From NCBI GenBank assembly GCA_965208675.1, contig OZ242351.1:160001-224000 (forward strand): 64,000 nt of DNA, written 5' to 3'. Below, one piece after another: positions 25,350 through 41,849 of this stretch. A program made the translations under genes and the position numbers. A model generated the notes under the pieces. The model did not search any database and had not been told where the DNA came from. It saw only the letters and a program-made list of their open reading frames with translations. This DNA comes from Candidatus Poribacteria bacterium. Its GTDB lineage: Bacteria > Poribacteria > WGA-4E > PCPOR2b. Within the stretch, counting starts at the first letter, position 1, and the number at the start of each line of letters is the position of its first letter.

Positions 25350-25441
25350 ATTGCAAAATTTCAGTAATTACAGTCTATAAAAAAAGCGGACAAAAACTGC
25401 AAAACCACTGTTTTGGCAGTACGATGAATCTGTAAAACAGC

Positions 25442-25591
25442 TAGGAGTTACGCAGTTGAACGTCCAAAGGTTCGTAGTAGGGCAATATATTGCCCGTTTC
25501 TACATAAAACAACATGTCAGGTCAAGGAAGTGAACGACCTGCCGGACGCGCAATAAATTGCGCAACTACAAGCTGCACTGCGTAAGTCCTA
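25442..25591. mobile_element. 150-bp MITE-like element with 15-bp terminal inverted repeats, containing a REP doublet
   Basis: TAGGAGTTACGCAGT ... ACTGCGTAAGTCCTA (14/15 match). Internal GGTTCGTAGTAGGGCAATATATTGCCCGT and ACGCGCAATAAATTGCGCAACTACAA. Confidence 0.7.
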
Positions 25592-25608
25592 ACAACATCA
25601 AAATACAC

Positions 25609-25637
25609 AAGATATCACAGATACACCCGAAAGTCAA
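25609..25637 (-). promoter_or_regulatory. Putative sigma70 promoter facing obgE
   Basis: Minus strand TTGACT-17 nt-TATCTT with TGn extended -10. Confidence 0.5.
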
Positions 25638-25707
25638 GCCGTTGCCATCTTCTCAATCGGAAAAGCAGTGTAAGATAGGTAGACCTTTTGACGCATCACC
25701 ATTTTGC

Positions 25708-25736
25708 TTGAAACTTGCCGCCTGCTTTGCTATGCT
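25708..25736 (+). promoter_or_regulatory. Putative sigma70 promoter for the VOC-SDR genes
   Basis: TTGAAA-17 nt-TATGCT with TGn extended -10. Confidence 0.5.
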
Positions 25737-25783
25737 ATCTCATCATCGGCACATGAACATAGCGGCTAGGCAGGAGGCGTCAC

Positions 25784-26263
25784 ATTATCGGCTCGGTAAA
25801 CATCCTTGATCACGTCTCAGTAACTGTAAGCGATATGGATCGGTCACTCGCGTTCTACCGAGATCTACTCGGACTCGAAGAAGTCGAGCGGCACCGGCTC
25901 GAAGGCGAAACCATCTCCGAAATGGCTGGCAAACCGGATGTGGTTATGCAGGTCGTACGGTTGCAAGCACCCGAAACCCCTGGGGTTTTGCTTGACCTGC
26001 AGCAATACATCACTCCCCAAGGCGAAAAATCTGACGCGCAGTTGGGTGACGTTGCTCATTCGCATTTTTGTTTCGGTGTACCGGACTTATTCGGAACCTA
26101 CACCTCGCTAAAAGCCAAAGGTGTCGAGTTCGTCTCGGAACCGGTTAATTTCGATCTCGAATGGGGTATCGTGCACGTGGTGTTCTTCAAGGATCCGGAC
26201 GGATTTGTTCTCGAACTGATGGAGTATCCAATCAAAAGAAAAGCATCGACCGATCAGCCGTAG
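25784..26263 (+). CDS. VOC/glyoxalase family protein (probable ATT start)
   Basis: LDHVSVTVSDMDRSLAFYRDLLG, HFCFGV, FFKDPDGFVLELME. RBS AGGAGG at 25772-25777. Confidence 0.88.
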   Translation: MIGSVNILDHVSVTVSDMDRSLAFYRDLLGLEEVERHRLEGETISEMAGKPDVVMQVVRLQAPETPGVLLDLQQYITPQGEKSDAQLGDVAHSHFCFGVPDLFGTYTSLKAKGVEFVSEPVNFDLEWGIVHVVFFKDPDGFVLELMEYPIKRKASTDQP

Positions 26264-26277
26264 TGCGGAGATAACTC

Positions 26278-27075
26278 ATGCCCAAGTACGATTTAGATGG
26301 ACAAGTAGCGGTGGTAACGGGCGCCGGACGTGGGATTGGCCGCGCCATTGCACTGCGCTTCGCCAAAGAAAAGGTGCGTGTAACTGCCGCCGACATCAAC
26401 TATGAAAACGCACAAGGTGTCGTCCAAGAAATCGAGGCGATGGGCGGTAAGGCAATGCCGCTCAAAGTGGATGTGACTTGCAAAGACGACACTGAACAGA
26501 TGGTTAGCCGGACGGTTGAACGATTCGGGCGGTTAGACATCTTGGTCAATAACGCCGGAATCGGCGTCATCGCCCCGCTATTGGACACCGGCGAGGAAGC
26601 CTGGGATGCGCTCATGAACGTCAATGCTAAGGGCGTTCTCCTCTGCTCGCAAGCCGCGGCGCGGCACATGATTGAACAGGGCAGCGGCGGCCGCATCATC
26701 AACAACGCCTCCGGCGCCGGCAAAATTGCGACTGGCAAAGATATTCCGCTTGGCGCTTACGCCGCCAGCAAGCATGCCGTGGTTGCACTGACCAAGCAGA
26801 TGGGGTTGGAATTGTCGTCGCACGGGATTCTTGTCAACTGCGTGTGCGCCGGCATTGTGGACACGCCGATGTGGGATCTGATCGACCGTGAGGTGGCGGC
26901 GTTGCAAGGTGCGCCGCTAGGGTCGGTAAAGGCAAGCGCCGTCGATCGGATACCGCTTGGTCGCATCGAAAAGCCGGAGGATGTCGCCAACATGGTCGCC
27001 TTCCTCGCCTCCGCCGATGCCAGCTACATTACCGCGCAAGCGCTAAACGTTTGCGGCGGCATGCTCCCCTATTAA
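26278..27075 (+). CDS. SDR family NAD(P)-dependent oxidoreductase
   Basis: TGAGRGIG, LVNNAG, YAASK, IPLGR, YITAQALNVCGG. Confidence 0.95.
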   Translation: MPKYDLDGQVAVVTGAGRGIGRAIALRFAKEKVRVTAADINYENAQGVVQEIEAMGGKAMPLKVDVTCKDDTEQMVSRTVERFGRLDILVNNAGIGVIAPLLDTGEEAWDALMNVNAKGVLLCSQAAARHMIEQGSGGRIINNASGAGKIATGKDIPLGAYAASKHAVVALTKQMGLELSSHGILVNCVCAGIVDTPMWDLIDREVAALQGAPLGSVKASAVDRIPLGRIEKPEDVANMVAFLASADASYITAQALNVCGGMLPY

Positions 27076-27111
27076 ACCCATTCCCCGCCGCGGAACGATT
27101 TCGGGCTGATG

Positions 27112-29645
27112 TTATTCCTCCAAATCAATCTCTAATTGCACAAACGCCTCTCTGATTTTATCCTCGTACTCTTGATTCGAAATCTGCCCTCCTGTAGCTG
27201 ACAGTTCGATTTGAAGGTTGTCGAATTTCGCTTGCAGCAGGTTCATCACGCCCATAATTCCTGACACCTTTCCTTTTGGAATATTGAACTTCAGTTGCAC
27301 ATTGTTGCGTCCATCCGGCTTTGGTTCTGGGTTCGGTGGTTTAGGGACAGGGTCAGGTCTTGGCGGAACTGGATCAGGCGGTGGTTGTTCATCATCCGGT
27401 TTTGTTTCCTTCAGACGGATGCAGACCGTATCGCGGATAATCACTTCGTTTCCAGCAAAGGCAACGGAGCCGGGACGCTCTTTGAAATATAGGCAGTCAG
27501 GCTCCCCATCCTGCAACCCACCGAGACCGAACATGCCTTTTTCAACACCTTCACGGATGCCGGACTCCCACACCGATTTGCTGATGATTCTCAGGCTGCC
27601 GGGGGTTTTCGCGCCAGACTGAAACAACTGTTCAGTGGAAACATAATCATTCGTGCCGAGATAGCGTTCTCTGAGAAGCAGCGGGGCAATCTGTTCCAAA
27701 ATTTCCCCGTCAGACCGCAGTTTCTCATAAACAACTTCATCAAGTTTCTTTGTCGCGCCGTAAGTTGGCACACCCAAATCCGTCTCCTTCAAGCCCTCTT
27801 TTGTCGGGATGAATAGGGTCCGGTAGTAGCGGCGCAGCATATCGTCCAAGCTGTTTTCCGCGGTTCTCAAACCGTCGCGAATCTCCTTCCGTTGCTCGTC
27901 GGAGAGATTCAATGTAACGTCCGTCTTGTTTAGGGCGCGGTAGGCAATCGTCTTTTTCAGTTGATTGTAGAACCCGCTCCGCTCGTGCGCCAGTGTCGTC
28001 AGAAAGAAAAGCGTGTTTCGATTGACTCTCGGGCTATTTCCCTTCGTTTCTAGCATCGTGTTCATCAGGGAACGGTCAGGCTGCTTCAGAATTACCAGTT
28101 TCAAATCAGCGTTGTCTGTAACCTCGGATGCGTCTTTCGGCCAAATCGACGTATTGAACCGTCCAACTGATAAATTCCTTTTGACCAAAGACTCCTCAAA
28201 CTCGTTGATTTCCGATTCCCTGATATTCTCCATGCGGGTCAGTAGAAGTCGGTTGAGGTTGGGCTGGTTGCTGAAATAGAATTTTTCACCCTCGTGTCGA
28301 AGGTAAAACAGCTTGTTTTGCAAATCGTTGGCGGCTTCGGTGACAACGCTAGACGGAATCCCCGTATTCACCGTATTGCGCTTGATTTCTCCGCGAGTCG
28401 CTCCCTGTTCAACGATGCCGCCCGAAAAGGAATACAGAAACACAGTCGTCGCGGCACGGCTACCAAGTTTGAGTCCCTTGTAGGCATCGCCAAGACCGAG
28501 ATCGGCCTTTTTCGCCCCGACTCCTCCCCCGTTATGTCCGCGGATATGATGCTGTCGAACTCGGGCCCGATGTGCTTAATCAACTCCCGTCGAATTTCCT
28601 GATCGCTCAAATCAAAGTCGCCGAGACTGATATATGGGATTGACCTCTCTTTAAGGGCACCGATGACGAGCGACAACAGCCGCAACACCCCCCGTGTGCG
28701 CTGGAAATTCGGGTAACTGCCCCACCGCTGATAGAGGACATCAATGGCTTCCGGTTGAAACGGATAGGCGGCTTCAAACCGTTTTCGGTATTCTGACGGT
28801 TCAGTGCCGGCGGGCAAAATGGATTCCTTGTCGGCGTAGTTCATAAAATCCTGAATCGCTTCAGCCGCGCCCTTCATATCAATCTGCGAGAAAAGCCGCC
28901 GCCGAATGACATCTGTAATCTCATGCTCTTGCACCGGCGTGTAAATCTTTTCCACCCGCCCTACAACATGTTGGAGCTGTTCGAATAGCTTTTCGGCTCC
29001 CTCGCCGAAGTGTTCCATCCCGCTTGACGGTAGCGTGATAACCAGTGCTATCTTCTCTAACGTACGAGCGGCTTCGGTAAACTCCTGCATAAAGGCAAGT
29101 GTCTGAGCGGACAGCGTACTGTCTTCGACGCGGACGCTATCGGCTTTGGTCATATATTCCAGCAACTCGTCCATCAAGATGAGCGCCGGTTGATTCGCCT
29201 CAAGCAGCTCGTAAATCGCATCTCTACCCGGAGCCGTAAACCCGTCAAACCGTGCTACGCTTCCCGCCAATTGGGACTCTAGCGCTCCCCAAAGTGTGTC
29301 TCGGCCGCTCATCGGTGTTCCGACAATCACGGCACGGGAGACATTCCAATCACTTGCTCTGTGATACATCGCAATCAGGGCGTGGGTCTTGCCGCCGCCG
29401 AAGGGGGTCTGAAGTTGAATCACCGGATCGCCGCCGCGTCCATCTAACCGACCTTCCACAACCGAAAGCAGGTGCTTGAGCCCATCCGTCTGATACGTTT
29501 TCTCGAAAAACTGCACGGCATCCTTGTATTCGTCCGGTCCGCGATTCTTGAACACCTCCCACAAATCCGCCGCGAAAACGTCCTGCGTGAGTCTTCCTTC
29601 TAGAATATCGCTGTGGGGTACGGCAATTGTGTGGAATGGAGTCAT
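27112..29645 (-). CDS. DUF499-family ATPase (~844 aa), split by a 1-nt deletion at 28515-28518
   Basis: PHSDILEGRL..DVFAADL, Walker A QTPFGGGKTH, Walker B LILMDE, AYPFQPE, FQRTRGVLRLL, QPNLNR. The two ORFs join as ...ESGAKKADLGLGDAYKGL... if one G is restored. Confidence 0.88.
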
Positions 29646-29746
29646 TTACATTTCTCCCTGATGATCTGTTCAATCTCCATCTTCAACTTAGGAATATTAG
29701 ATTGCAGGACGAAACCTCGGAGGTAGCATTTATATTCTAGCGACAT
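29642..29746 (-). pseudogene. Internally deleted DUF86/HEPN toxin remnant (34 aa)
   Basis: MSLEYKCYLRGFVLQSNIPKLKMEIEQIIREKCK. Resembles HEPN N- and C-termini fused together, with no RxxxxH. Overlaps the MNT stop and the DUF499 start (ATGA). Confidence 0.65.
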
Positions 29747-30038
29747 ACTCGACCTCCTTTTCGATTCGCGACCTTAAGCGCGGTTTGACAGAGTCGGCGG
29801 TGACAAGGTCAATTTTTTTCTGAAAAAGATCTTCGAGGAAAATGCGCAACCCCATGTACCGATCGAATGACAGTTCCTCAAACTCTACAAGTAGGTCAAT
29901 GTCGCTGTCTGCGTGGGCAGCATCCTTGACATAAGAACCGAAGAGCCCGAGCCATATCACACCGTGTTCTTTCAGTGTATCCCGGTGGTCAAGAAGCATC
30001 TGTTTAATTTCGAGCTTAGTGAGAACCGGGGGCTTCAT
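29730..30038 (-). CDS. Minimal nucleotidyltransferase (MNT) antitoxin
   Basis: LGLFGSYVK...SDIDLLVEF, LEDLFQKKIDLVT, KPRLRSRIEKE. Confidence 0.92.
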   Translation of the reverse strand: MKPPVLTKLEIKQMLLDHRDTLKEHGVIWLGLFGSYVKDAAHADSDIDLLVEFEELSFDRYMGLRIFLEDLFQKKIDLVTADSVKPRLRSRIEKEVEYVARI

Positions 30039-30057
30039 TATGTCCTTTGCATGCGCG

Positions 30058-30369
30058 ATTCGTAGTTACGAATTTCTTTGCGCGCTTACACGACGCGTCG
30101 CAAATTACACTACCGAACCTGTTGATTGTTTGGTTTGTAGTAGCGCAATTCATTGCGCGTTTTTGCAGTAAAAGAGTTGTGCTACTACGAACCTGCCGAA
30201 TCCTGTTTGGTAGGCCTCTATTAAGTTTGTCTCAAATCTCAAAGTCTTACGACATGTGCGTTGACACAACGAGTCGCAAATCACACTACCGAATCTATTG
30301 ATTGTTTGGTTTGTAGTAGCGCAATTCATTGCGCGTTTTAACGGGCAATAAATTGCCCTCGTTCGAACC
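30058..30369. repeat. Cluster of REP doublets (REPIN/BIME-like) downstream of RAYT
   Basis: GGTTTGTAGTAGCGCAATTCATTGCGCGT at 30132 and 30308, with inverted partners ending at 30193 and 30369. An ~85-bp direct repeat (~30079-30164 and ~30257-30339) recurs with a 176-bp period. Confidence 0.85.
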
Positions 30370-30963
30370 TCACCAATCCCACCCTTTTCCATAATCTCGG
30401 ACAGGATAAGAGTTCCAGAGATCGTGTATCCACTCAACGCCAAAGTGCTTTTGATACCAATGTAAACTTGAACAAGTCCAACCTAACGGTTTTTGTACGT
30501 AATTATGTTTTGTTGGATTGTAATGAATATAGTTAATCGTCGTGTAATAGTGCCGTACACTTCGAATCTGCCGATCACTGAAAAGATGCCAAACTTTGCG
30601 TCCAGACTCGCTTTCACGATGATTCAAGCCTCGCGCCGTGCGGGCATGAACTCGACGCAAGGGCTGACTGATAACTGAAAATGGCTGACATTGAACCAAT
30701 AGATGATAATGATTTGGTAATACGACCCAGCTAGCAATAGATATTCCGACGACTTGTAGTTCTGTCAGTAACTCGTCCAGGAGCCACGCCCGATCTTCCT
30801 CTGTTTGGAAATGTCGTTTGTGTTCGTAAGTAGCAGCAGTAATCAGAAACCAGCCTTTGGCGCGATGAAAGTGAGGTGGTTCATGTAGTGGAAAGTTTCT
30901 CGACTGCCGCTGACGCAGGGTTTCAGTTTTGTGCTCGGGTGTTAGCGTACGATATCGGTACAT
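30370..30963 (-). mobile_element. REP-associated tyrosine transposase (RAYT, HUH/Y1 family)
   Basis: FLITAAT, WVVLPNHYHLL (HUH), KVW...DRQIRS, YIHYNP (catalytic Tyr), W..SS. Flanked by REPs on both sides. Confidence 0.9.
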
Positions 30964-30983
30964 ATTCTTAAGCCTAAGTGCTC

Positions 30984-31133
30984 GTTCGTAGTAACACAAT
31001 TCATTGTAGGTTTGTGATAAGAACGAATGATAAATACCCCTACTAAAAACTCAACCCTGCAATTGATTGGAGGTTCGTAGTAGCGCAATTCATTGCGCGT
31101 GCGGACGGGCAATAAATTGCCCTACTACAAACC
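30984..31133. repeat. REP doublets upstream of RAYT
   Basis: Intact doublet at 31072-31133: GGTTCGTAGTAGCGCAATTCATTGCGCGT-GCGG-ACGGGCAATAAATTGCCCTACTACAAACC. Decayed copy from 30984. Confidence 0.88.
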
Positions 31134-33811
31134 TAAAATAGCCTACCCTGCCTCATCTCTTCTCTAACCCTCTCCCGTCCAGCGAGGAACCCGTCCAACA
31201 GCTTCTTCTCTTTGCTTTCAATAGACAATGTTTCCGAAATCGCCTGCGCCACGCGATAAAACGCCTCGCTCTCTCCGTAGCCGCTTTCTGCGAGCGCGAC
31301 AATCAGTTCATCTCGCTGCCCCTTTTCCCAGAGTAACAGGGCACGGTGCAAAAGGTCAATTAGTTCCCCAGTGTGCTTGAGGTCGTCCATCTTCCGGTTT
31401 TGTGGACCATGGACGCGAACATATGCCTTTTCCTTGACGACAAAACTCTTTCTACTCCACTCGCGGGCGAGGTCGACGCCGCAAGACTGCGCCAACTTCC
31501 GTGCATCGTCAAACTGGACACGTGCCTCTTTATATTCCCACCGCCAGAGAACGTAAAAGCGGGTAAGATCGGAGATTTCGCCCGCGAATCCATTTTGTAG
31601 AATTTGCCGCACTGCGTAATCGGTGGCAATCTCCCGTACATCGTCGAGCAGACGATCGGCGCGGGCAACACGTCCCTCATAGTCCATCACCTTATCGTAT
31701 TTGCCAAAAACCTCAATGGCGGAGCCGATGGCGGCTATGAAAAAGTCGGCACCGCTTAAGCCCTCCTCCCAGAGTCGCTGGAGTTTAGCATTGAGGTGCG
31801 TTGTCAACTCCGCTTTGACTTCATTGTAGAAGCCGGTAGGTTCACGTTCAATCTTCCGGGCGACGATATAAATGGAGGATGCAAGAGAGGCGGTCTCCAT
31901 GGCGTTTATTCTTCCTGTCATCTCTGTATTTATTGGCCAAGCACCCGTCACGATTAATCCAGAATCAAGCAATGAATTTATCAGAGTTTCCCAGCCCTCG
32001 GTTGATTTGTGGGCATATACAATGGTTGCCACACCGTCGTGTTTTAAAACACGGTAGATTTCCTGAAAGGATTGCTTAAGTTTCTCCTCAAAAAAACACT
32101 TCGCCGCGCTTTTTCCACCTTTTCGATATGGAGCAGACACTATTTCATTTGATTTAGGCGTTAACGGTGTTGAAAATAATTCTGGATACAAATTCCCTAC
32201 CGTCCTTTTTAGCCAGACGTAAAAAAAATCGGACAAGCTAGCATACCCAATATTGTCGTAATACGGCGGATCTGTGAATGCAGCATCGAAGAAATTATCA
32301 GGATAAGGAAGATTTGTAGCAGAGGACTGAGTGATTGTAGCCATGGCCGATGAACAAGAGTTGCCAATGTCTAATGGTTCTCTTATAGTTTCTATTGAGT
32401 TAATCCAACTCGTGCTTATTTTCCCTAAGCAATTTACCTCAAAGTAATCGAAAACCATTGGTATTGCATTTCTACCACTAAACACATGTATGTTTTGTTC
32501 CGATCCAACCTTCCATCTACAAAAGGATGTTGAAAACGAGGTTAATCTGTCTACTGCTAACGACAAATAACTCACCACTACTTTCGTATATTCCTCATGG
32601 TATCCTTCGGTCACCATCTTTTGGCACACTATCTTGACTTTTTCAGCGAGAGTAATCAATGTAAGCTTCTGCCTTGAATTGAATAGTTGGCCCCATTCAT
32701 TAAAGCCGTAACCCCTTCCTGCGACTGTGTCGGGGTTACTGGTGTTCATTTGCTCATTTGGCACTGAATCCAATCCCCATTCAGACGTCAACTGCTGCCG
32801 TTTATCTGTAAGGAACGCCTTGGCGGATTCAAACACCGAAAGATCAAGATCCGTAACCACGCGATAAAGCTTTCCGGTTGTGCCCGGCTTGTGTGTTACA
32901 ACGGCGATCATTCGTTCTCCCGCTTTCCCATCCTTAAACAACTGTCGTGTCAACTTCGCTTCTACGGTACCACGGCAGACAGGACACACCACCACAGCAC
33001 GTGAAACGGTGCCTTTAATCGGGTCAAAATTGTGGGGCACCGGTTCGTAACCATCGCCCACAATCTTGAAGTTTAATTCCTCATTGTCACTCAAAGGATA
33101 GAGTGAAACCTTCTTTTTGGGCTTATTCGCTAACCAGAAATGCCCCATTAGCGGAATTTCCGCCCCACACGACGGATTTTGACATGGAATCGTCCTCGCC
33201 CAGATCCACCCGACTGGGATTGAACCGTCGTTATCTTCTGGATAAAATCGCCCCAGTTCTCTTTTCGCCTCCGCAAGCACCCACGTACCCCATTTCTTGA
33301 CATCTTGGAACAAAGAATTTTGGGCTGGCTCGTTAAAATTAAGTTCTTCAGAGGCGCTTTTTATTGATCGTCCGAACTTCTGCGGGTATTGCAGCGTGCA
33401 CTTCTGAATCAGAACCGCAACAGGGTTGAGGTCGTTGGAATAGGTTTCACAGCCAAGCCGAAGCGCCTCCAGTGGAATTGCCCCGCCACCTCCAAAGGGA
33501 TCGAGAACTTTTGGAGGAACGCCTCCGTTGGCTTCGAGAATTTCTCTTCGTGCCGTTTCAATTATATTAGAGTTTAGTGAGTTTTCCCACTTTGAGAGAT
33601 CACTGATAAAATTCCGTTTCCTGTTCCAATCCTCGGTGTCTTTGGGCGGCGGAGTCAAGGCGGCGTAAGCGGTAGCGCGTGATGCGGCAAGTGGTCGCCG
33701 TGCCCACCAGAGATGGAGCTTTGAGATATGTCCGTATGGTGGAATCTTTTCATTAGCAGATTGCTCGCTGACTTCTTTGACGGGGAAACTCTCTTCAATG
33801 AAACGTTTCAT
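31133..33811 (-). CDS. DUF1156-domain adenine-specific DNA methyltransferase with Zn ribbon
   Basis: LHLWWARRPLAASRA, motif I VLDPFGGGGAIPLEA, DLNPVA, CQNPSC..CPVC, LFNSRQ, motif IV FTDPPYYDN. Confidence 0.93.
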   Translation of the reverse strand: MKRFIEESFPVKEVSEQSANEKIPPYGHISKLHLWWARRPLAASRATAYAALTPPPKDTEDWNRKRNFISDLSKWENSLNSNIIETARREILEANGGVPPKVLDPFGGGGAIPLEALRLGCETYSNDLNPVAVLIQKCTLQYPQKFGRSIKSASEELNFNEPAQNSLFQDVKKWGTWVLAEAKRELGRFYPEDNDGSIPVGWIWARTIPCQNPSCGAEIPLMGHFWLANKPKKKVSLYPLSDNEELNFKIVGDGYEPVPHNFDPIKGTVSRAVVVCPVCRGTVEAKLTRQLFKDGKAGERMIAVVTHKPGTTGKLYRVVTDLDLSVFESAKAFLTDKRQQLTSEWGLDSVPNEQMNTSNPDTVAGRGYGFNEWGQLFNSRQKLTLITLAEKVKIVCQKMVTEGYHEEYTKVVVSYLSLAVDRLTSFSTSFCRWKVGSEQNIHVFSGRNAIPMVFDYFEVNCLGKISTSWINSIETIREPLDIGNSCSSAMATITQSSATNLPYPDNFFDAAFTDPPYYDNIGYASLSDFFYVWLKRTVGNLYPELFSTPLTPKSNEIVSAPYRKGGKSAAKCFFEEKLKQSFQEIYRVLKHDGVATIVYAHKSTEGWETLINSLLDSGLIVTGAWPINTEMTGRINAMETASLASSIYIVARKIEREPTGFYNEVKAELTTHLNAKLQRLWEEGLSGADFFIAAIGSAIEVFGKYDKVMDYEGRVARADRLLDDVREIATDYAVRQILQNGFAGEISDLTRFYVLWRWEYKEARVQFDDARKLAQSCGVDLAREWSRKSFVVKEKAYVRVHGPQNRKMDDLKHTGELIDLLHRALLLWEKGQRDELIVALAESGYGESEAFYRVAQAISETLSIESKEKKLLDGFLAGRERVREEMRQGRLF

Positions 33812-34032
33812 TCCAGTTCCTCTTGTCCCATTTTTCGATTCTTAGCTAGTTTACGTAGCGCAGACTCGACCCTCCATTCTGACGCCTTTTCCTGAAGTTC
33901 AACCGAGGTATACTCACTTCGAAACTCTCCCAAGCCACCAATCCAACTTAATTTTGGCTTCTTTTGTCGCCGAAACTCCTCTTCAGTTGAGTAGGAATCT
34001 TGATTGCATTTATCAAAGACGTTAGATTTCAT
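33808..34032 (-). CDS. DUF2281-like small protein, N-terminally truncated or altered
   Basis: KKPKLSWIGGLGEFRSEYTSVELQEKASEWR resembles the DUF2281 C-terminal half. Coupled to the MTase start by ATGA. Confidence 0.55.
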   Translation of the reverse strand: MKSNVFDKCNQDSYSTEEEFRRQKKPKLSWIGGLGEFRSEYTSVELQEKASEWRVESALRKLAKNRKMGQEELE

Positions 34033-34054
34033 AATGTGTATCCCGCCGCTTTTT

Positions 34055-34081
34055 GGTTCGTAGTAGCGCAATTCATTGCGC
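34055..34081 (+). repeat. Single REP of the RAYT-associated family
   Basis: GGTTCGTAGTAGCGCAATTCATTGCGC. Confidence 0.85.
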
Positions 34082-34195
34082 ATTGGGTTAAGTGAAAAGT
34101 TGTCCTGCAATATACGGGCAAAGTATCGCATGCATTCGAGTCAGCGCGTTGTTTCTATACCGGCACGCGATCCACGACGTAATTTTAGGTGCATC

Positions 34196-36220
34196 TTAAG
34201 AAGCCCCGGTTTTTCCTTCGCCGAAAGCACTGCGAATCTCTTTGAAGAGCTTAATGGCTTTACACCGCGTTTCATCAGGCAACGCACTGGCATCGTTCAT
34301 ACCGCTAAGCTTTTTTTGCAATCGCTTTGCGATTGGTCCCTTGTTGATTTTAATATCTCTTTCGTTCATGAAACGCTCAACTCTTTTCCAGAGTATGTCA
34401 TTACCCTGTAACGTAATCTCTTCTACACCAGCGTTTGCAAGTTGTTTGCTGTAAGCATCTTTAACAATCTCCACAAAAAAATATTCAGGGAAAAGATCTT
34501 CAATCGCAAAATCACCACAGGCACTTACAGCATCGCCTAGTAGAATAACTTCGGTTTGATTCTTTTTATATCTCTCAAGCCACTGTTTAACGAGTTTATC
34601 CCGAGCACGTCTTCCCTCATCGTCAGAGTCAAACAAGGCAACCACGTTAAGATTCTGCCCAATCATAAAGGTCGTAATATGGACGGCGGGCGAGGCGCCA
34701 CCCCCCGCTGTAATAAGGACATCCTTTGGTAGAGCTTCCTCCCCATGTTGTTGGAGTAAGTTTGATAGCTCCGTGAGGATCCAGTAATCATCAACCCCCT
34801 CTACAACAAGATTGCGTTCGGCGACGAGAAAACTGTGTGAGGCATCCATTCCTAACGCCGCCTGAAGCACCAGTTTTGCTTCTGGTGGACTTTCCGTAAA
34901 GTTAGTTGTCACTACAATACCATTATCTGTTTCTGTCAATATTCGGATGCGGGCTGGGCAGTTGAGATCGATCATGAAGGGGAGATGTGTCGTATAGAGA
35001 AGCGTATTCCCCTTTGCATAGTGTTCAAGACGACGCAGTAGGTCTTTTTGAGCATCAGGATGAAGATGAAGCCCTGGTTCGTCCAGAAGAACGACACAGC
35101 CTTCAAACGTTCCTCCACTCTCATGCATAAACATGAGATCGAAGGAAAAAAACCACTGAAATCCTTTCGATCTTTCCTCTAGCCGAATGAGCGCTGGATC
35201 ATGATCGTCCTTTACGAAAGTGAAGAAACGCTGACCATCGGCACGGTATTCAACTTCATAGCGACGCTGACGAAGTCGATTCGAGATTTCACTCGTTAGC
35301 GTTGCGGCACCATCATCAAGATCTAATTGCCGTTGCTCAATTTGTTCCTCATTACCCTGCCCTAACTGAATCAGCTCGTCCAGGTCAAGAATAGATAAGC
35401 CAAGGATTGTTAAGAATGTGTTATCTGCGTCTGTGAGATGATTTTGGTCTTGTCGAGATTTAATCTCATCGAGCTGCGCGGTACCGCTGAAGGTCCTATA
35501 GTCGGACATATAGATAAAGGTGGGTAAATTATCGGTAATGTAATCGGCTGCTTCTAATCGGACAGAGGGTATTTGTTCAAGCGCAGGAACAACATTTTCA
35601 AGGCTAGAAAGGTACTGGTTCAAAAAATATTCCTCGATTTGCAGTGGTGGATCCGAAGGTGATAGCGAATCCTGCAACAACGCAGCGTGCTTTTCAGCTA
35701 TTTCACTCAACTCTACGAATTGCCCTTTAACAGCAAGGTGACACAATTCTTTTAGGCATTCCTCCGCGATTTCTTTGAAGCGGCCACCAAAGTCGTTTTC
35801 AATCTTGGGCACGCTTTCAAGAGCGTTATTGACGGATTTTGGGTCGAGTTCATGTAAGAAAATTCCCTCCGGGAAGTCTACCTCCAATTCCCCTGCATAA
35901 TTCCGTGAAACTTCCACAATATCTGGAAAGTTTTCCCGATTCGTAATTTGGGCGAGATAAGATTTCTCTTGGTCTGAAAGTCGAAAGCTTGCCCGACAGA
36001 CTTCTTGTTCTTCACTCCGCTCTCTTCGATGAGCACGAGGCCATTCCCTGTCCATCTGGTATTGATCCGGGCTGTAAGGGTTGAGTTTATGAAGTGCCTT
36101 CAGAAGGGAAGTCTTGCCCGACTCATTCTTACCGACTAGCACCGTTAGGGGATTCACGTCAACCCAGCCAGAATCACGAATTCCTTTGTACATTTTTACA
36201 CGAAAGGCAATTAGGTCCAT
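34196..36220 (-). CDS. OLD-family ABC-ATPase/TOPRIM nuclease
   Basis: Walker A GKNESGKT, signature RSKGFQW, Walker B/D-loop LLDEPGLHLHP, H-loop TTH, TOPRIM VVEGVDD and FDSD, IEDLF. Confidence 0.88.
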   Translation of the reverse strand: MDLIAFRVKMYKGIRDSGWVDVNPLTVLVGKNESGKTSLLKALHKLNPYSPDQYQMDREWPRAHRRERSEEQEVCRASFRLSDQEKSYLAQITNRENFPDIVEVSRNYAGELEVDFPEGIFLHELDPKSVNNALESVPKIENDFGGRFKEIAEECLKELCHLAVKGQFVELSEIAEKHAALLQDSLSPSDPPLQIEEYFLNQYLSSLENVVPALEQIPSVRLEAADYITDNLPTFIYMSDYRTFSGTAQLDEIKSRQDQNHLTDADNTFLTILGLSILDLDELIQLGQGNEEQIEQRQLDLDDGAATLTSEISNRLRQRRYEVEYRADGQRFFTFVKDDHDPALIRLEERSKGFQWFFSFDLMFMHESGGTFEGCVVLLDEPGLHLHPDAQKDLLRRLEHYAKGNTLLYTTHLPFMIDLNCPARIRILTETDNGIVVTTNFTESPPEAKLVLQAALGMDASHSFLVAERNLVVEGVDDYWILTELSNLLQQHGEEALPKDVLITAGGGASPAVHITTFMIGQNLNVVALFDSDDEGRRARDKLVKQWLERYKKNQTEVILLGDAVSACGDFAIEDLFPEYFFVEIVKDAYSKQLANAGVEEITLQGNDILWKRVERFMNERDIKINKGPIAKRLQKKLSGMNDASALPDETRCKAIKLFKEIRSAFGEGKTGAS

Positions 36221-36277
36221 AGGAAAATCTCAACTCTCCCAGATTCGTTATATTTTGTCGATATATCCTCTACACCG

Positions 36278-39200
36278 TCAGCGCAAATGGATTTCCTCAT
36301 TGCATTTTACCCCTTTTTTCTGAATTTCATCCAGAGAGATCAGATGCCGAACCACTTCAATCTGCTCTTCAGGGTGCGTCTCCTCGGCTGGGTTCTGGAT
36401 TGTGTACAGGACAGGCTGCGTTCTTGCGTTGAGTACGGCGTAAAGGAAATAGTCCGATTTGAACTGCTTGGCTTTGAACCACTCATTTTGCGTCAAAGAC
36501 ACGGCGCCAAGCCCGGCTCGCGCTTTGACTTCGATATACCGTTTCACCCCTCCCTTATCTGTTGAGCGGACATCGAAACCCAGGTTATCGGAGGAAACGT
36601 CTTCGGGCGTGCGTCCATATTGCCGTTCGTACCCCATCGCCACCTCCATGCCGATGCGCTCAATTTCCGGATCGCTTTTCATGGCTGAAGTTTCAGTTGG
36701 CGCGGGAATTACCCGGATCGCACCGAGGTAATTGGGCGTACTCTGGGTCAGGTTGCCTTCTTGGGCAGTGGTTAGTTCTAACGTTTTGAGGCTATCTTCG
36801 TAATCCTGCTTCTTTTCCTCCTTGTTGCGCACGAGGCGATCGACATTTTCACCCTTCTCGCGGCGCTCATAGAGCGAAATCAAATCGCTGTCCAGTTGGA
36901 GGATGAGGTAGTTAAGCGACTTGAGTCCATACTTCTCTTTAATCGCCGCCTGCCGTTTCCGTTCAACTGTAAGTTCGTCCTTATAAGCCCGAAGCACAGG
37001 TATTATATCAGGCATGACTATGGCTTTCAAGCCATCAGTGTCTTCCGATGCGACTTGCTGTGAACTTTCCGCTAGGTCCCAGATAACTGTGGGGTCAATA
37101 GGTTCGACCATTTTTGTATCGGTGCTCACATAGAAAGCAAACAGCCGCGCCCCTGCAACCTGCCCCTTGCCGTCGCGAATCTCGCCCTCATAGAACAGGA
37201 TGACGCCGTCCCAACTCCCGTCGGGGTCCTCAAAAACCGCCCCTTGTGTCAGGTTGTCCGTGAGGTTTTCATCCACCCAACCGAGCACGGCTTCAAACAC
37301 TGGATGACCAAAGGAGATGAACTCCGCGTCCGGGTTTCTGAACGCGAGTTCTTTTTCGAAAGTGGCTTTCGGATAAGATTTCATTATCCCGCCGTGTTTC
37401 CGCTTGAAGGCATCTTTTTCGGCAATCCTGCGAATCGGCACCGGAATCCTTTCAATTGCTAGAAATCCATCGCGTCGGTCTCGCAGCCTTCCGTTGAACG
37501 GCGCGACGGCTTTTCGGAAAAAGGCTTCCGTATATTCAGGAATCAGACGCCTTTCCCGTGCGCGTTCCGCCATCTCTCCGAGTCGAGTGTAGTCGATGTA
37601 ACGCGTGGCAAGGCTTTCGCCCAAGTTTTCTTTGACTTCGGCAATGTAATTTTCATTTACTTCAATGTTAATTTCTGCGAGAATCTCTTCGGTGCTCTTT
37701 GCGTTGGCTGCCGCCTCTAGCATTAGGTGATTGAGATTCACGTCGTATAACACTTCGTTCAACACGTCGAACACTTTGTCGCTTCCCAGGGCGTTTTTGA
37801 TCTCGTCAATCTTCTGAAAAAGCGCCGTCATCACCTCGCCTTCTCGCGTGTCCTTGGCGACGAGGTTATAGACGAATACCTCGCGCGTCTGGCCGTAGCG
37901 GTGGATTCGCCCCATGCGTTGTTCCAGGCGGTTGGGATTCCACGGCAGATCGTAGTTAATCATCAGGTGGCAGAACTGAAGATTGATGCCTTCACCAGCA
38001 GCTTCCGTGGCAATCATAATCTGGCTTTGGTTTTTGAATTCGCTCTCCGCCTCAATCCGCTCTTCGAGTCTCAATCCGCCGTGAATCACCGTGACGGTAT
38101 ATCCCCAACCCTCCATTTTGCGCTGAAGGTATGCCAAAGTATCCCTCGATTCGGTGAAGATGAGGATTTTTTCCCCGCGGAAACGATCCTCCAAATCGTC
38201 CAGCGTCCGCTTTAACTCTCCAAGTTTGAGTTCGCTTTCGTCATCAATTATCGTCCTCGCCAAATCAGCCAAGGTTTCAAGCGTTTCAATTTCGCGTTCC
38301 AGTTCCTCTCGATTTTCGGCGACAGAAAGCGTCTCCCAAATCTCCTCCTCCTTCCACCGTTCCTCCTCGCTCAAATCGTCGATGGTCTCAAAATCGTGGA
38401 CGTATTCCGTTCGTTTTCTTTCGACGGCGCCTTCCAACAATTCGCAGAGGCGCACTCGCCGCCGCTTCAGCGAAGTAAGCAGTGCATAGGTGCTTGACGC
38501 GAGTCGGCGCTGCAGGATAACGAGCGCAAACGCCACGTTGTTCCGTTTGTCCTTAGTCAGCGCCTTATTATATTGGCTATGAACATACTTGGAAAGCGCG
38601 TTGTAGAGTTCCATTTCGTGCGGAGAATCAACGCCGAGGTTGAAAGGAAGCGTCGTGACGTGCCGGGGCAAAAACAGCGGTTTACCCTCAAAATCCTTCA
38701 AATCTTCTTTCACCCGGCGGATAAAGAGCGGATTGTCCCCCGCCGTGACGGATTCACGTAAATCTTGACTGGTGGCGAAGAAGCCCGGTTCAAGCAGATC
38801 CAGGAACAATCGAAAATTCTCAGGGTCGCCCTTGTGCGGCGTAGCGGTGAGGAAGAGGAGATGGGTTGCTGATTTTGATAGCATCTCGCCCAGCCGATAA
38901 CGACTCGTCTTGTCGAGTTTATCGCCGTACTGGTACGCCGCCATCTTGTGCGCCTCATCTACAATAACCAGATCGAAGGGGGCTGACGCAATTGCGGGCA
39001 TGACATCGTCGCGTTTGGCAAAATCAATGGAGGTGATAATCTGGGACTCGCGGCTCCACGGATTTTCACCGGGTACCGAATCGAGAACGGCGCGATCCAT
39101 AATACGGAAACTCTCTTCAAACCGCTCCTTCAATTCCCTTCGCCACTGGTCTTTGAGATGCCCTGGCGCGACAATCAGTGTCCGGGAAATCAGATGACGG

Positions 39201-39625
39201 AGTTTTAACTCCTTGATAATAAGCCCCGCCATAATCGTCTTGCCGGCGCCCGGGTCGTCGGCAATCAGGAACCGGATGCGCGGCAGCTTGAGCACATGAC
39301 CGTAGACTGCCTCCACCTGATGTGGCAGCGGATCCACCTTAGAGGCGCTGACCGCGAAAAGCGAATCGTAGAGCGCTGCATTGCGGTAACGCCGCGCTTC
39401 AAGGCTGAGGAACACGTCCCGCGCCTTTGCCTTGAAGTCGAGCGAGACTTTCCCAACCTGCAACTCGTTCACTTCGTCGCGGGTGAGCATGGCGTCAATA
39501 TGATCTCGCGAATTGACGGTTGAGCCAACCAATCGGATGTATTCCCCAATCTCTTCCACGAGATCGATTTTCACCGGCTCGGGCCAATGATGGGATTCTA
39601 TGATGTCTCCGCTTTTAATGTTCAT
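36278..39625 (-). CDS. SNF2-family helicase with C-terminal DUF3883 (PD-(D/E)xK) nuclease domain
   Basis: PLPHQ, LIADDPGAGKT, DEAH, LTATPH, QRRLASS, ATEAAGEGINLQ, QRMGRIHRYGQ. C-terminal GFDVRS..YIEVKAR..LTQNEW. Confidence 0.93.
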   Translation of the reverse strand: MNIKSGDIIESHHWPEPVKIDLVEEIGEYIRLVGSTVNSRDHIDAMLTRDEVNELQVGKVSLDFKAKARDVFLSLEARRYRNAALYDSLFAVSASKVDPLPHQVEAVYGHVLKLPRIRFLIADDPGAGKTIMAGLIIKELKLRHLISRTLIVAPGHLKDQWRRELKERFEESFRIMDRAVLDSVPGENPWSRESQIITSIDFAKRDDVMPAIASAPFDLVIVDEAHKMAAYQYGDKLDKTSRYRLGEMLSKSATHLLFLTATPHKGDPENFRLFLDLLEPGFFATSQDLRESVTAGDNPLFIRRVKEDLKDFEGKPLFLPRHVTTLPFNLGVDSPHEMELYNALSKYVHSQYNKALTKDKRNNVAFALVILQRRLASSTYALLTSLKRRRVRLCELLEGAVERKRTEYVHDFETIDDLSEEERWKEEEIWETLSVAENREELEREIETLETLADLARTIIDDESELKLGELKRTLDDLEDRFRGEKILIFTESRDTLAYLQRKMEGWGYTVTVIHGGLRLEERIEAESEFKNQSQIMIATEAAGEGINLQFCHLMINYDLPWNPNRLEQRMGRIHRYGQTREVFVYNLVAKDTREGEVMTALFQKIDEIKNALGSDKVFDVLNEVLYDVNLNHLMLEAAANAKSTEEILAEINIEVNENYIAEVKENLGESLATRYIDYTRLGEMAERARERRLIPEYTEAFFRKAVAPFNGRLRDRRDGFLAIERIPVPIRRIAEKDAFKRKHGGIMKSYPKATFEKELAFRNPDAEFISFGHPVFEAVLGWVDENLTDNLTQGAVFEDPDGSWDGVILFYEGEIRDGKGQVAGARLFAFYVSTDTKMVEPIDPTVIWDLAESSQQVASEDTDGLKAIVMPDIIPVLRAYKDELTVERKRQAAIKEKYGLKSLNYLILQLDSDLISLYERREKGENVDRLVRNKEEKKQDYEDSLKTLELTTAQEGNLTQSTPNYLGAIRVIPAPTETSAMKSDPEIERIGMEVAMGYERQYGRTPEDVSSDNLGFDVRSTDKGGVKRYIEVKARAGLGAVSLTQNEWFKAKQFKSDYFLYAVLNARTQPVLYTIQNPAEETHPEEQIEVVRHLISLDEIQKKGVKCNEEIHLR

Positions 39626-39771
39626 GGAAAATGGTTACCTCATTTGATACTATTGAAATCATCAGGTGTATCGCTTCCGCCTAACCACACGCGTAAACGG
39701 TGACACTGAACGACCAAAACCGCGATCGGTCTTTAATTTGGATCTCAACTGAGTACTGTTGGGTTTGGCGT

Positions 39772-40932
39772 CTATGACAAATAAAAATATATCTGATCAA
39801 GGGCTAAAAGCGCCTGTAATGCTTTGACTGATGTATAATCTTCCTCGGCTGCAGCACCATGTGCAACGCTGTGCCTTGATACGTCAACCATACCCGTTTC
39901 AAGATTGAATTGTGTAAAAACGCTGCCGTTGAGATAATTCAAAAACATTCCGGGAAAGAGTAGCGACTGGCTGTCGCTCGCGACTCGCTGTTGTCCAACG
40001 TCCGTCAGATGGAGTATCAATTCTTTCAGCTTTACCCCATCGCCCTTTCCTGTGTCCTTAAAATACGCATAACGCATGACTCCTTCAATTTCGGTATAAA
40101 GGGTCTTAATGCAGTTTATAAAACCGCTTTCAGTCCCTTGCTGAAAAGCATCAATACCTGCTTGCAGCAGATGTTGCTTTTCCTGAAAAATGCAATTTTC
40201 CCACCACTTTTCAGTCATTCTTCTCACGCGTGATTCATCGAATGAATCAAGCAGTGCCCCTACCGTATCATCGTAAGTGAATTTCTCATTCTCATAGGTG
40301 CCGGCTAATGTTTTGTAGTCGTTTCCTAGAATTTCAATGAAGGGAAACCACCCATCTTTTAGCATTTCTTCAAATTGCGTTTCTGATTCTAGGCTTTGAT
40401 ACACATACTGAAAACTTAAGGTCCTATAAAGCCTCCCTAGGTTAACCTGCATTGACGCAATATCAAATCCGTTAGCAGGGCCTAGTAAGTTAAAATACAG
40501 TCCGAATTTCCAGCCGACTTTTAAGCAACAGATAACGCTGTCGTGTTCTTGTATTGCTACACCCGGAAACCTCACCTGTCGAATATCTGCAATATCGCTT
40601 TCTGTGACAACTGTTCCCGATTCTATACTGCGCTTGGATAGCATCTCTATCTCCATGGGAAAATCATTGATATAAATATGTGCGCTCAAATCAGGGTGAA
40701 TTAGTATCAGAAAACTATGGATATCATTGACGTTTAATAGGCGTTCTTTACCATCAAGGTGAAACCTAAGACCATTCAAATAGGTGCTTGATAGCTGCTC
40801 TATAAATCTGTAAAAATTTGCATCGTCGGACGTGAGACTGGCAGACGCCAATGCGTAGAAATAGTGTTCTTTAGGGACGTTGCAAACCGTAAACCCGGTT
40901 AGACTTTTGACCTTGTCAACGATTAGTCGCAT
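39772..40932 (-). CDS. Hypothetical protein with C-terminal HEPN-like RxxxxH motif
   Basis: EIEGVMR ... SRHSVAHG followed by a terminal helix. Visibly more AT-rich than the housekeeping genes. Confidence 0.7.
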   Translation of the reverse strand: MRLIVDKVKSLTGFTVCNVPKEHYFYALASASLTSDDANFYRFIEQLSSTYLNGLRFHLDGKERLLNVNDIHSFLILIHPDLSAHIYINDFPMEIEMLSKRSIESGTVVTESDIADIRQVRFPGVAIQEHDSVICCLKVGWKFGLYFNLLGPANGFDIASMQVNLGRLYRTLSFQYVYQSLESETQFEEMLKDGWFPFIEILGNDYKTLAGTYENEKFTYDDTVGALLDSFDESRVRRMTEKWWENCIFQEKQHLLQAGIDAFQQGTESGFINCIKTLYTEIEGVMRYAYFKDTGKGDGVKLKELILHLTDVGQQRVASDSQSLLFPGMFLNYLNGSVFTQFNLETGMVDVSRHSVAHGAAAEEDYTSVKALQALLALDQIYFYLS

Positions 40933-41075
40933 GACTTTTTATTTGCCTCCTATTCAATAAATATCTGTTTCACTTCCTTGCCAATCAATCTTTTAAGCCC
41001 GTGTTCCTTAGCTGTTCCGTTGGCGGGAAAGAGGCGACATCACCTGAGGATTCACTCTTACCTACCCCAAAATAC

Positions 41076-41105
41076 AAAAAAAGCCCCGCTTGATGACGAG
41101 GCTTT
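41076..41105 (-). terminator. Rho-independent terminator after rpmA
   Basis: Minus strand AAAGCCTCGT-CATCAA-GCGGGGCTTTTTTT. Confidence 0.8.
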
Positions 41106-41135
41106 GAGTTTGGATAATCCGATTGGAATATGCGG

Positions 41136-41402
41136 TTAGAAATCTGGGCGTTCTGCGTAGACGCTGACTTTTCTGCGGTATTTGTCCTTCCGCTCAAACC
41201 AGACGTAGCCGTCAATCTTTGAGAAGAGCGTATAGTCGCTCCCAAGCCCGACGTTCGTGCCCGGATGAAGGTGCGTCCCACGCTGCCGAACGAGGATGCT
41301 TCCTGCTGTCACGTGGTTTCCAGCGAAACGCTTCACGCCAAGTCGTTTGCCGCAGCTATCCCGCCCATTACTTGTACTTCCGCCGCCTTTTTTATGCGCC
41401 AT
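41136..41402 (-). CDS. rpmA: 50S ribosomal protein L27
   Basis: [35 protein letters not shown]. Confidence 0.98.
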
Positions 41403-41745
41403 TTTCTGCTGCCTCCTCGGGGCTATGTTCTTGTTGAATTTCAGTGATTCGTAATCGAGTCAATCTCTGCCGGTGTCCGAGCTTACGTTTGTAGCCTTTT
41501 CGTCTCTTTGATTTGAAAACAACAATCTTCTTCGCTTTTCCCTGCTCAACAACCTCTCCAATTACGGCGGCTTTTTCCAAATAAGGCTCCCCAACCTGCA
41601 GATCGCCTTCGCCGTCTCCAATCGCTAATACTTCCGGGAACGTAACAATTTCGCCTACGGGAACTTCAACCTTTTCAACATCAATCAGTGTCCCCACTTC
41701 AACGCGATGCTGTTTTCCACCGGCGGCAAATACAGCGTACATCAC
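41392..41745 (-). CDS. rplU: 50S ribosomal protein L21
   Basis: [33 protein letters not shown]. Confidence 0.98.
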
Positions 41746-41778
41746 TTTCTCCTTTAAAACGAACAGTTATGAATGCGA

Positions 41779-41846
41779 GCCTACATTATCGGAAATACCG
41801 GTAGGCACGATCAAAAAGTATATCAGACCACTTCTTCTTCTGTCAA
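41779..41846 (-). promoter_or_regulatory. rplU promoter and leader hairpin
   Basis: TTGACA (41846-41841)-18 nt-TATACT with TGn extended -10. Nested leader hairpin GCCTAC-CGG..CCG-GTAGGC at 41779-41806. Confidence 0.65.
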
Positions 41847-41849
41847 TAC

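Follow-up and report, generated by a model that had tools for sequence, protein, structure and literature searches.

On the minus strand of a 64,000-nucleotide stretch of contig OZ242351.1 from a Candidatus Poribacteria bacterium (hereafter, the window), positions 27112 to 40932 hold a gene cluster that, judging from its sequence, almost certainly encodes an Hma system, i.e., a helicase-nuclease (HmaA), a DNA methylase (HmaB), and an ATPase (HmaC), a trio also classified as Type-1 BREX-related (BR). Very probably, this is an intact Hma locus that resides in a hotspot between rpmA and obgE and offers exchangeable slots to passenger genes.

Identity of the core genes

The assignment is based on PADLOC profile models applied to each protein and on gene spacing counted from the list of open reading frames (ORFs). 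The helicase is matched best, among 66 models, by HmaA (PDLC00659, E 2e-201, residues 3-1091), and the methylase is matched best, among 17 models, by HmaB (PDLC00661, E 2e-130). The ATPase is split into two ORFs in the assembly, and HmaC (PDLC00662) is the best model for both halves (E 7e-94 and 2e-26), scoring 313.8 bits vs. 107.9 for the DUF499 model. The PADLOC search, one of the checks that the initial annotation had proposed, returned Hma models as the best matches for all three core proteins. Two ORFs separate hmaA from hmaB and three separate hmaB from hmaC, which is within the limit of three embedded genes per core pair (quoted from an excerpt of bioRxiv 10.1101/2024.01.29.577857). Because these best matches come together with the gene order of the Halomonas locus and with a fit to the Type-1 BR definition, the locus can be regarded as Hma.

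Every catalytic motif of the helicase, nuclease, methylase, and ATPase is present. In the hmaA product, Pfam recognises SNF2, Helicase_C, and, at residues 988-1076, NOV_C (PF13020, E 2e-20), which we take to be the renamed DUF3883; the C-terminal DUF3883 nuclease of the initial annotation is thereby borne out. The helicase motifs are GAGKT (126), DEAH (223), and QRMGRIHR (569), and the PD-(D/E)xK nuclease residues D1018, E1032-x-K1034, and E1048 are kept in 5/5 aligned proteins; their equivalence to the experimentally tested D1084, E1104, K1106, and E1121 is taken from the order of the motifs and not from an alignment. The hmaB product carries DUF1156 (PF06634, E 1e-17) at residues 9-61, the motifs DPFGGGG (104) and DPPY (514), and cysteine pairs at 210-215 and 276-279. 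It had been annotated as an N6-adenine methyltransferase; the amino-methyltransferase class stands, but the DPPY motif is common ground for m6A and m4C and does not tell them apart. Identity of HmaB to six relatives falls to 36-49% at residues 351-500 vs. 59-90% in other 50-residue blocks, and this variable block is likely to be responsible for target recognition. Walker A (GGGKT, 83) and Walker B (MDE, 158) motifs are found in the hmaC product.

ORF lists combined with Pfam, PADLOC, and NCBIfam scans place nine elements on the minus strand, in the order in which they had initially been described (Table 1). The claim that several of them are coupled by ATGA overlaps holds for two of the eight junctions (DUF2281-like/methylase and HEPN remnant/ATPase); with ORFs as listed, the MNT and HEPN remnant ORFs share 17 nt, and at the remaining five junctions the ORFs are separated by 57-331 nt. 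Promoter and terminator scans of the locus gave counts near chance (22 vs. 14.7 ± 4.0 and 14 vs. 16.2 ± 3.9, respectively). Since a terminator-like hairpin (41105-41080) follows rpmA, read-through from the ribosomal genes should not be assumed.

Table 1. Features of the Hma locus, in the direction of transcription of the genes (window coordinates)
Feature	Coordinates	Strand	Length	Description
386-aa HEPN-like gene	39772..40932	minus	386 aa	N-terminal part rich in beta strands; HEPN-like domain at the C-terminus, carrying S352-R-H-S-x-x-H358-G
hmaA	36278..39625	minus	1115 aa	Swi2/Snf2 helicase with C-terminal NOV_C (DUF3883) PD-(D/E)xK nuclease
OLD-like gene	34196..36220	minus	674 aa	ABC ATPase-TOPRIM; embedded, without adjacent UvrD
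DUF2281-like gene	33808..34032	minus	74 aa from second ATG	shortened; ATGA-coupled to hmaB; no adjacent PIN gene
hmaB	31133..33811	minus	892 aa	DUF1156 amino-methyltransferase
RAYT	30370..30963	minus	197 aa	REP-associated tyrosine transposase; between hmaB and MNT
MNT	29730..30038	minus	102 aa	nucleotidyltransferase (MntA-type antitoxin)
HEPN remnant	29642..29746	minus	34 codons	HepT/DUF86 remnant; ATGA-coupled to hmaC
hmaC	27112..29645	minus	about 844 aa	DUF499 ATPase without N-terminal HEPN; two ORFs in assembly
REP hairpins	30137..31128			five, GTAG type, flanking RAYT; starts 30137, 30313, 30343, 31077, 31107
Single REP	34060..34081	plus		at OLD-like/DUF2281-like junction

A constant core with changing cargo

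Forty-one genomes, including the present one, were surveyed (handles for genomes, G, and for contigs, L, are ours), and 20 of them gave a methylase match at E<=1e-20. Seven loci besides the present one encode a methylase that shares at least 68% identity with that of the window. The initial annotation had suggested that homologous loci be collected to separate the core from its cargo, and the outcome is mixed: helicase, methylase, and ATPase are complete and in order in four of the seven (G003, G005, G006, and G019), each with cargo different from that found here, whereas three are incomplete. An eighth related locus, on a short contig of G008, has a partial methylase and an ATPase, and two more distant loci (51-52%) in G040 are fragmented.

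The slot between helicase and methylase is occupied by XisH/XisI and PDC-S06 genes (G003), by an ABC ATPase and a DUF4435/AriB-like gene (G019), or by an ABC ATPase and a PIN gene (G005 and G006); the slot between methylase and ATPase contains RAYT (G003 and G010), MNT (G005), MNT with an intact HepT (G006), or nothing (G019). Identity to the G003 proteins amounts to 84% for the helicase, 89% for the ATPase, and 70% for the methylase, in which the loss is concentrated in residues 351-500. The cargo (HEPN-like, OLD-like, and RAYT genes) has a GC content of 0.42-0.45 vs. 0.52 for hmaA and hmaC. On the evidence of these comparisons, the gaps between hma genes are exchangeable slots. Leftover gene ends have also been found, namely, hmaC 5' stubs in G006 and G029 and, in G003 and G005, ends of DUF2281 that occur repeatedly; we therefore favour homologous recombination between Hma loci as the route by which cargo would be imported. 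In two sponge metagenomes from other studies (runs X5 and X6), the helicase and ATPase are covered, at 88% likeness, to a depth of about 30-70, as compared with 1-5 for the middle of the methylase and 0-3 for the OLD-like gene; this pattern fits allelic turnover and looks the same as absence. Related complete genomes with the same core, swapped methylase specificity blocks, and different cargo are suited to a methylome test of Hma self-methylation.

Does the trio act as one system?

In line with the published model, HmaB would methylate a host motif, with specificity conferred by the fast-changing central block; HmaC would act as an ORC/Cdc6-like ATPase scaffold; HmaA would move along DNA and nick invading DNA that is unmarked; and the passengers would act as independent backups, of which one, the OLD-like ATPase-TOPRIM, probably works. 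The initial annotation had anticipated this arrangement (methylase, ATPase scaffold, and helicase-nuclease, with passengers in the gaps), and it agrees closely with the published scheme. It is somewhat more probable than otherwise that discrimination between self and non-self is based on methylation; this is still a model, and experimental support is limited to HmaA of another species, which acts against T4 and whose C-terminal domain nicks supercoiled plasmid (PMC11232893).

Several observations weigh against a methylation-dependent trio. In the excerpts of PMC11232893 (2024) on which we draw, HmaA alone, i.e., without HmaB and HmaC, restricted T4 (not T5, T7, or EEP), and T4 grown on a host overexpressing HmaB was not spared. 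Of the three incomplete loci, those in G010 and G023 consist of methylase and ATPase, in genomes without a helicase match at E<=1e-100, and the third is a lone methylase in G005; moreover, the related loci are kin and hence not independent. It is conceivable, if rather unlikely, that HmaA works by itself as a sensor and nickase and induces dormancy, and that HmaB-HmaC, although it accompanies HmaA, is a separable module for methylation. The T4 results and the hmaB-hmaC pairs without a close hmaA in G010 and G023 would suit such an arrangement, as would the fact that 85% of hmaA genes are found with hmaB and 81% with hmaC (PMC11232893, excerpts). However, the negative test of HmaB was apparently performed without HmaC (same source), the A-B-C order is kept in 4/7 related loci despite turnover of the intervening genes, and the hypervariable block of the methylase is what changing target specificity would be expected to produce.

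The reading frame of hmaC

The hmaC split is caused by one base missing from a G run near 28514 in the assembly. Four runs (X1, X4, X5, and X6) were aligned as contigs to positions 25500-42500; X1 and X4 represent one sample, which may be the source sample, and they are thus suitable for checking an assembly error and do not count as independent population evidence. The sole contig covering the site has the extra base in both X1 (15.3/15.3 depth) and X4 (28.5/28.5 depth). Furthermore, hmaC is a single ORF of 834-847 aa in six relatives, and the same five-G codons are found in frame in G003. A biological frameshift was thus rejected. The break is an assembly error and the frame is intact; contigs alone leave room for a minority five-G allele. 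The initial annotation had assumed that the core must be frame-repaired before cloning, a step that the real gene does not need, because X1 and X4 carry the extra base at full depth.

A locus that is switched off or decaying, in which the break would be real and due to slippage in the G run, is highly improbable. The break does sit in a homopolymer, the ruined toxin-antitoxin genes might point the same way, broken Hma-type genes occur in G003 (a second methylase) and G040, rare variants are dropped by Logan contigs, and neither X5 nor X6 lists an insertion near 28514 (0/39 and 0/28 depth; four indel rows are not shown). Nonetheless, judging from the distances to contig ends, the X5 and X6 contigs seem to reach no further than about 5 bases from the site; with those indel rows hidden, they are treated as uninformative there, and a run of five bases is short for a switch. 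The full-depth X1 and X4 contigs and the in-frame G003 codons speak for an intact hmaC.

The rpmA-obgE hotspot

The locus occupies an interval of variable content, bounded by rpmA on one side and the SDR/VOC/obgE genes on the other, in an rplU-rpmA-SDR-obgE neighbourhood shared with one Poribacteria record at 84-93% identity. From rpmA to obgE, the interval measures 16 kb here and about 9, 7.5, and 18 kb in three genomes of the same genus, only one of which (G003) has Hma within it. The rpmA-obgE interval is thus a hotspot.

In the narrower interval from rpmA to the SDR gene (27076-41135 of the window), G003 also has a TIR (ThsB-like) gene with an unknown gene, and HigBA-like and HicB-like genes; G001 has trypsin-like and trypsin-TPR genes, DUF2971, and a member of the 386-aa family; and G002 has trypsin-TPR, DUF2971, and an unknown gene (hotspot contigs L021, L031, and L032). 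A few kb beyond obgE-proBA, two genomes of the same genus, G003 (L022:6225-13138, where the methylase is split) and G001 (L036:4120-12344), have a DUF1156 methylase and a DUF499 ATPase fused to HEPN. Two more loci with helicase, DUF1156 methylase, and DUF499 genes are present in the genome of the window (G000, C1:3201614-3212541 and C1:2016059-2034514), with methylases 29-31% identical; in the latter, the helicase is fused to an HTH, several genes are embedded, and the methylase and ATPase are separated by an IS200-like ORF, among others. In X1 and X4, a joint from 26707 to the REP at 34054 skips 7,346 bases, with a short side of only 24 letters; depth inside vs. outside is about 28 vs. 36-37 in X4 and about 15 vs. 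15.5 and 17 in X1, and the joint probably represents a repeat or another organism.

Embedded defence genes

The OLD-like protein is matched by Pfam AAA_15/AAA_21 and by the PADLOC models AriA, Old, and GajA (E 1e-17 to 5e-15). Its best solved relative is the OLD-family nuclease 6P74 (E 4e-8), in an alignment that spans the Walker B and VEG motifs. The motifs GKNESGKT (30), LDEPG (379), VEG (473), and DSD (531) and the acidic residues of TOPRIM are present. An ATPase-TOPRIM of this kind would trigger nucleic-acid cleavage upon sensing a phage inhibitor. Gabija was ruled out, there being no UvrD gene adjoining the OLD-like gene. The HEC-04 model is absent from the best 25 of 105 PADLOC matches, and the TOPRIM part alone gave no HEC-04 match at E<=1e-4; the protein probably belongs to another OLD subfamily.

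Members of this family were found in 4/41 genomes at E<=1e-40. In G029 (L120:8675-11876), an orphaned cassette begins with a broken OLD-like gene, followed by MNT, a HEPN-like gene that is intact, and an hmaC 5' stub of 60 codons; no further hma gene was seen in 20 kb. The OLD-like family has thus occupied an Hma slot elsewhere. The copies in G005 and G037 had no hma gene in the flanking DNA examined. Over 34261-36153 of the window, an X1/X4 contig (depth 22 and 70) holds an internally deleted OLD-like copy, which is assigned to a co-occurring organism because the genome of the window yielded no second copy.

The initial annotation regarded the genes in the gaps as back-up effectors, which is plausible for the OLD-like gene, with its intact motifs; of the toxin-antitoxin modules, one has lost most of its HEPN toxin, and the other consists of a shortened DUF2281-like gene with no PIN gene adjacent. 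DUF2281 is generally read as a PIN antitoxin. The ORF in the window has no Pfam match of its own, and its label rests on the copies of relatives, which match PF10047 at E 4e-12 (G019) and 4e-4 (G003); it is without 13 core residues found in the G019 and G005 copies, and PIN genes occupy the corresponding slot in G005 and G006. MNT is matched by PF01909 (E 5e-14), PADLOC PDC-S09 (E 4e-31), and NF047752 (50.7 bits, under the cut-off of 60). Both ends of the HEPN remnant align to a HepT-like gene of 114 aa that is intact in the corresponding slot of G006, and relative to which about 80 central residues are lost, including the RxxxxH segment. As far as this alignment indicates, the toxin partner of MNT is a deletion remnant, so that the MNT-HEPN pair is no longer intact here.

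RAYT and REP hairpins

The RAYT scores 85.3 bits against NCBIfam NF047646 (cut-off 80) and carries the HUH/Y1 motifs HYH (97) and YIHYN (157); it is present as a single close copy in the genome, the next match being 26% identical. The island holds 6 of the 35 REP copies of the genome, as compared with 0.1 expected under even spread and 0 in one shuffled genome; its repeat families are D1-D4. Among the eight close Hma loci, REPs are situated at cargo junctions in five (this one, G003, G010, G023, and G006), and RAYT is located between hmaB and hmaC in three. In G010 (L027:14051-14520), a 150-bp unit formed by a REP pair together with the 3' end of hmaB occurs in three tandem copies upstream of RAYT. 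A limited literature search and the excerpted PMC5581495 yielded nothing on RAYTs inside Hma.

It is tempting to suggest that RAYT nicks REP hairpins at Hma junctions and thus drives turnover of defence cassettes, which, if true, would be a host benefit for a domesticated transposase. This is quite doubtful: 29 of the 35 REPs lie outside the island, the compared loci are kin, and the hmaC and DUF2281 stubs indicate homologous recombination. RAYT occurs in 10/41 genomes, three times between hmaB and hmaC and seven times away from hma genes, and in G011, G024, G031, and G035 no hma gene lies closer than 1.5 kb to the same RAYT (66-83% identical).

Between obgE and the VOC gene (25434-25603), there is a roughly 150-bp element with REP ends, REPIN-like, of which about 16 related copies (80-95% identity) exist in the genome. 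This family is probably served by the RAYT of the island.

The 386-aa HEPN-like gene

The gene upstream of hmaA had initially been counted among the nine genes of the candidate system. However, none of 66 loci with a homolog has hma genes nearby (tblastn E<=1e-6, up to 7 kb, many contigs being short), and G001, in which this hotspot has no Hma, harbours a homolog (72% identical) there. A role as a fourth core gene was ruled out on these grounds, and, from this distribution, the gene is best described as a separate hotspot passenger rather than an Hma member.

The protein has no Pfam, PADLOC, or NCBIfam family; Pfam matches of 78 homologs are at chance level only, and there is no named Atlas cluster among 30 matches (the nearest is DUF4209 at 0.82). 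Homologs numbered 374 in a word-indexed search and 410 clusters in a profile search at E<=1e-30, and the named close ones are from Poribacteria. Among 78 aligned homologs (of 120 listed), which are close relatives (48-88% identical), R353 of the RHSxxH motif is kept in 77 and H358 in all 78. In the predicted model (pLDDT 85.8), residues 245-386 show a weak, consistent resemblance to HEPN folds at Z 5-6.2 by VIA (all Z below 8), with 2HSB as the best match (rmsd 3.4, 111 aligned) and HEPN named in 6 of the top 16 titles; Foldseek found no match at E<=0.001. The N-terminal 178 residues, folded without an alignment, reached a pLDDT of 32.7, and this domain is not shown to be new.

Among 15 Poribacteria-labelled loci, which are kin (L039-L046, L048, L051, L052, L059, L091, and L096), 13 have the gene between or beside type III restriction-modification genes: it is located between type III mod and res in eight, between short mod/res fragments in two, directly downstream of mod/res in two, and before res on a short contig in one; the other two loci have neither mod nor res. 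Outside Poribacteria, 8/91 hand-picked neighbours, in 6/46 loci, match PADLOC at E<=1e-25, a count that has no background control and omits five short or weak loci; the association with defence is weak there. The gene may encode a HEPN RNase that acts on its own and takes up residence in defence hotspots. A narrow search found no paper from 2022 on linking HEPN with embedded type III anti-phage restriction, which leaves the family not shown to be undescribed; that it is an undescribed anti-phage RNase is a tentative proposal, slightly less probable than the contrary. Nonetheless, with 410 clusters and no family model, it is a reasonable candidate for anti-phage assays.

Comparison with known systems

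The initial annotation had proposed a distinct three-gene machine, and it correctly set the locus apart from the restriction-like (RL) system, which was reportedly described by Gao et al. in 2020. Both share a DUF499 ATPase, a DUF1156 methylase, and an SNF2 helicase, whereas DUF3780 and the N-terminal HKD nuclease are missing here: Pfam found no DUF3780 in 11 ORFs of the locus, the PLD_Helicase model of RL in PADLOC covers only residues 532-615 of the hmaA product, and the NCBIfam RL models are far under their cut-offs (131/1200 for the N-terminal half, 184/1000, and 138.7/1100 for NF042964). A distinct, uncharacterised system, to which this dissimilarity from RL/Type-2 could point, is exceedingly improbable given the near full-length Hma model matches and the same trio with passengers in publications. 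The claim of novelty fails because the core matches the Hma models and embedded backups have already been published; a match to a characterised system, which the initial annotation had named as removing novelty, was found in Hma/Type-1 BR through PADLOC and the papers.

The comparisons below refer to excerpts of the cited papers. Hma was named in 2021 from 1,638 loci (PMC8565338, Payne et al.), and the Halomonas genes are annotated as DUF3883, DUF1156, and DUF499 (PMC11232893). The present locus is alike in its HmaA (SNF2-NOV_C), HmaB (DUF1156), and HmaC (DUF499), in their order on one strand, and in the insertion of genes between them, which is reported for 66.5% of Hma loci (PMC11232893) or for 931/1,485 systems (63%), with mobility genes making up 3.1% of embedded genes (bioRxiv 10.1101/2024.01.29.577857). 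The cargo differs, being an OLD-like ATPase-TOPRIM, RAYT/REP, and MNT here and Septu in the tested system. An m5C methylase was predicted in PMC8565338, whereas DPPY here denotes an amino-methyltransferase, as stated in PMC12839542 and the PADLOC model text. The embedded ATPase-TOPRIM fusion HEC-04 has been validated (bioRxiv 10.1101/2024.01.29.577857); the OLD-like protein is likewise a single-gene ABC ATPase-TOPRIM inside Hma, has the Walker A as well as the TOPRIM E/DxD residues, but differs in giving no HEC-04 match among its best 25.

In 2026, the trio was renamed Type-1 BR on the basis of 2,446 taxa, Type-2 BR being set apart by DUF3780 and an HKD-helicase, and TOPRIM/OLD, HEPN, and MNT-HEPN were listed as in-locus backup effectors (PMC12839542). 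The present locus differs in that its ATPase is without the optional N-terminal HEPN (found in 1370/2446 taxa) and in its embedded RAYT, the word "transposase" being absent from the main text of that paper. However, it shares with Type-1 BR the tripartite core, the helicase with C-terminal PD-(D/E)xK (79% of taxa), the DUF1156 amino-methylase (an N6-methylase in Type-1 BR), and the backups within the locus. It is one more copy among some 1,500-2,400 catalogued systems.

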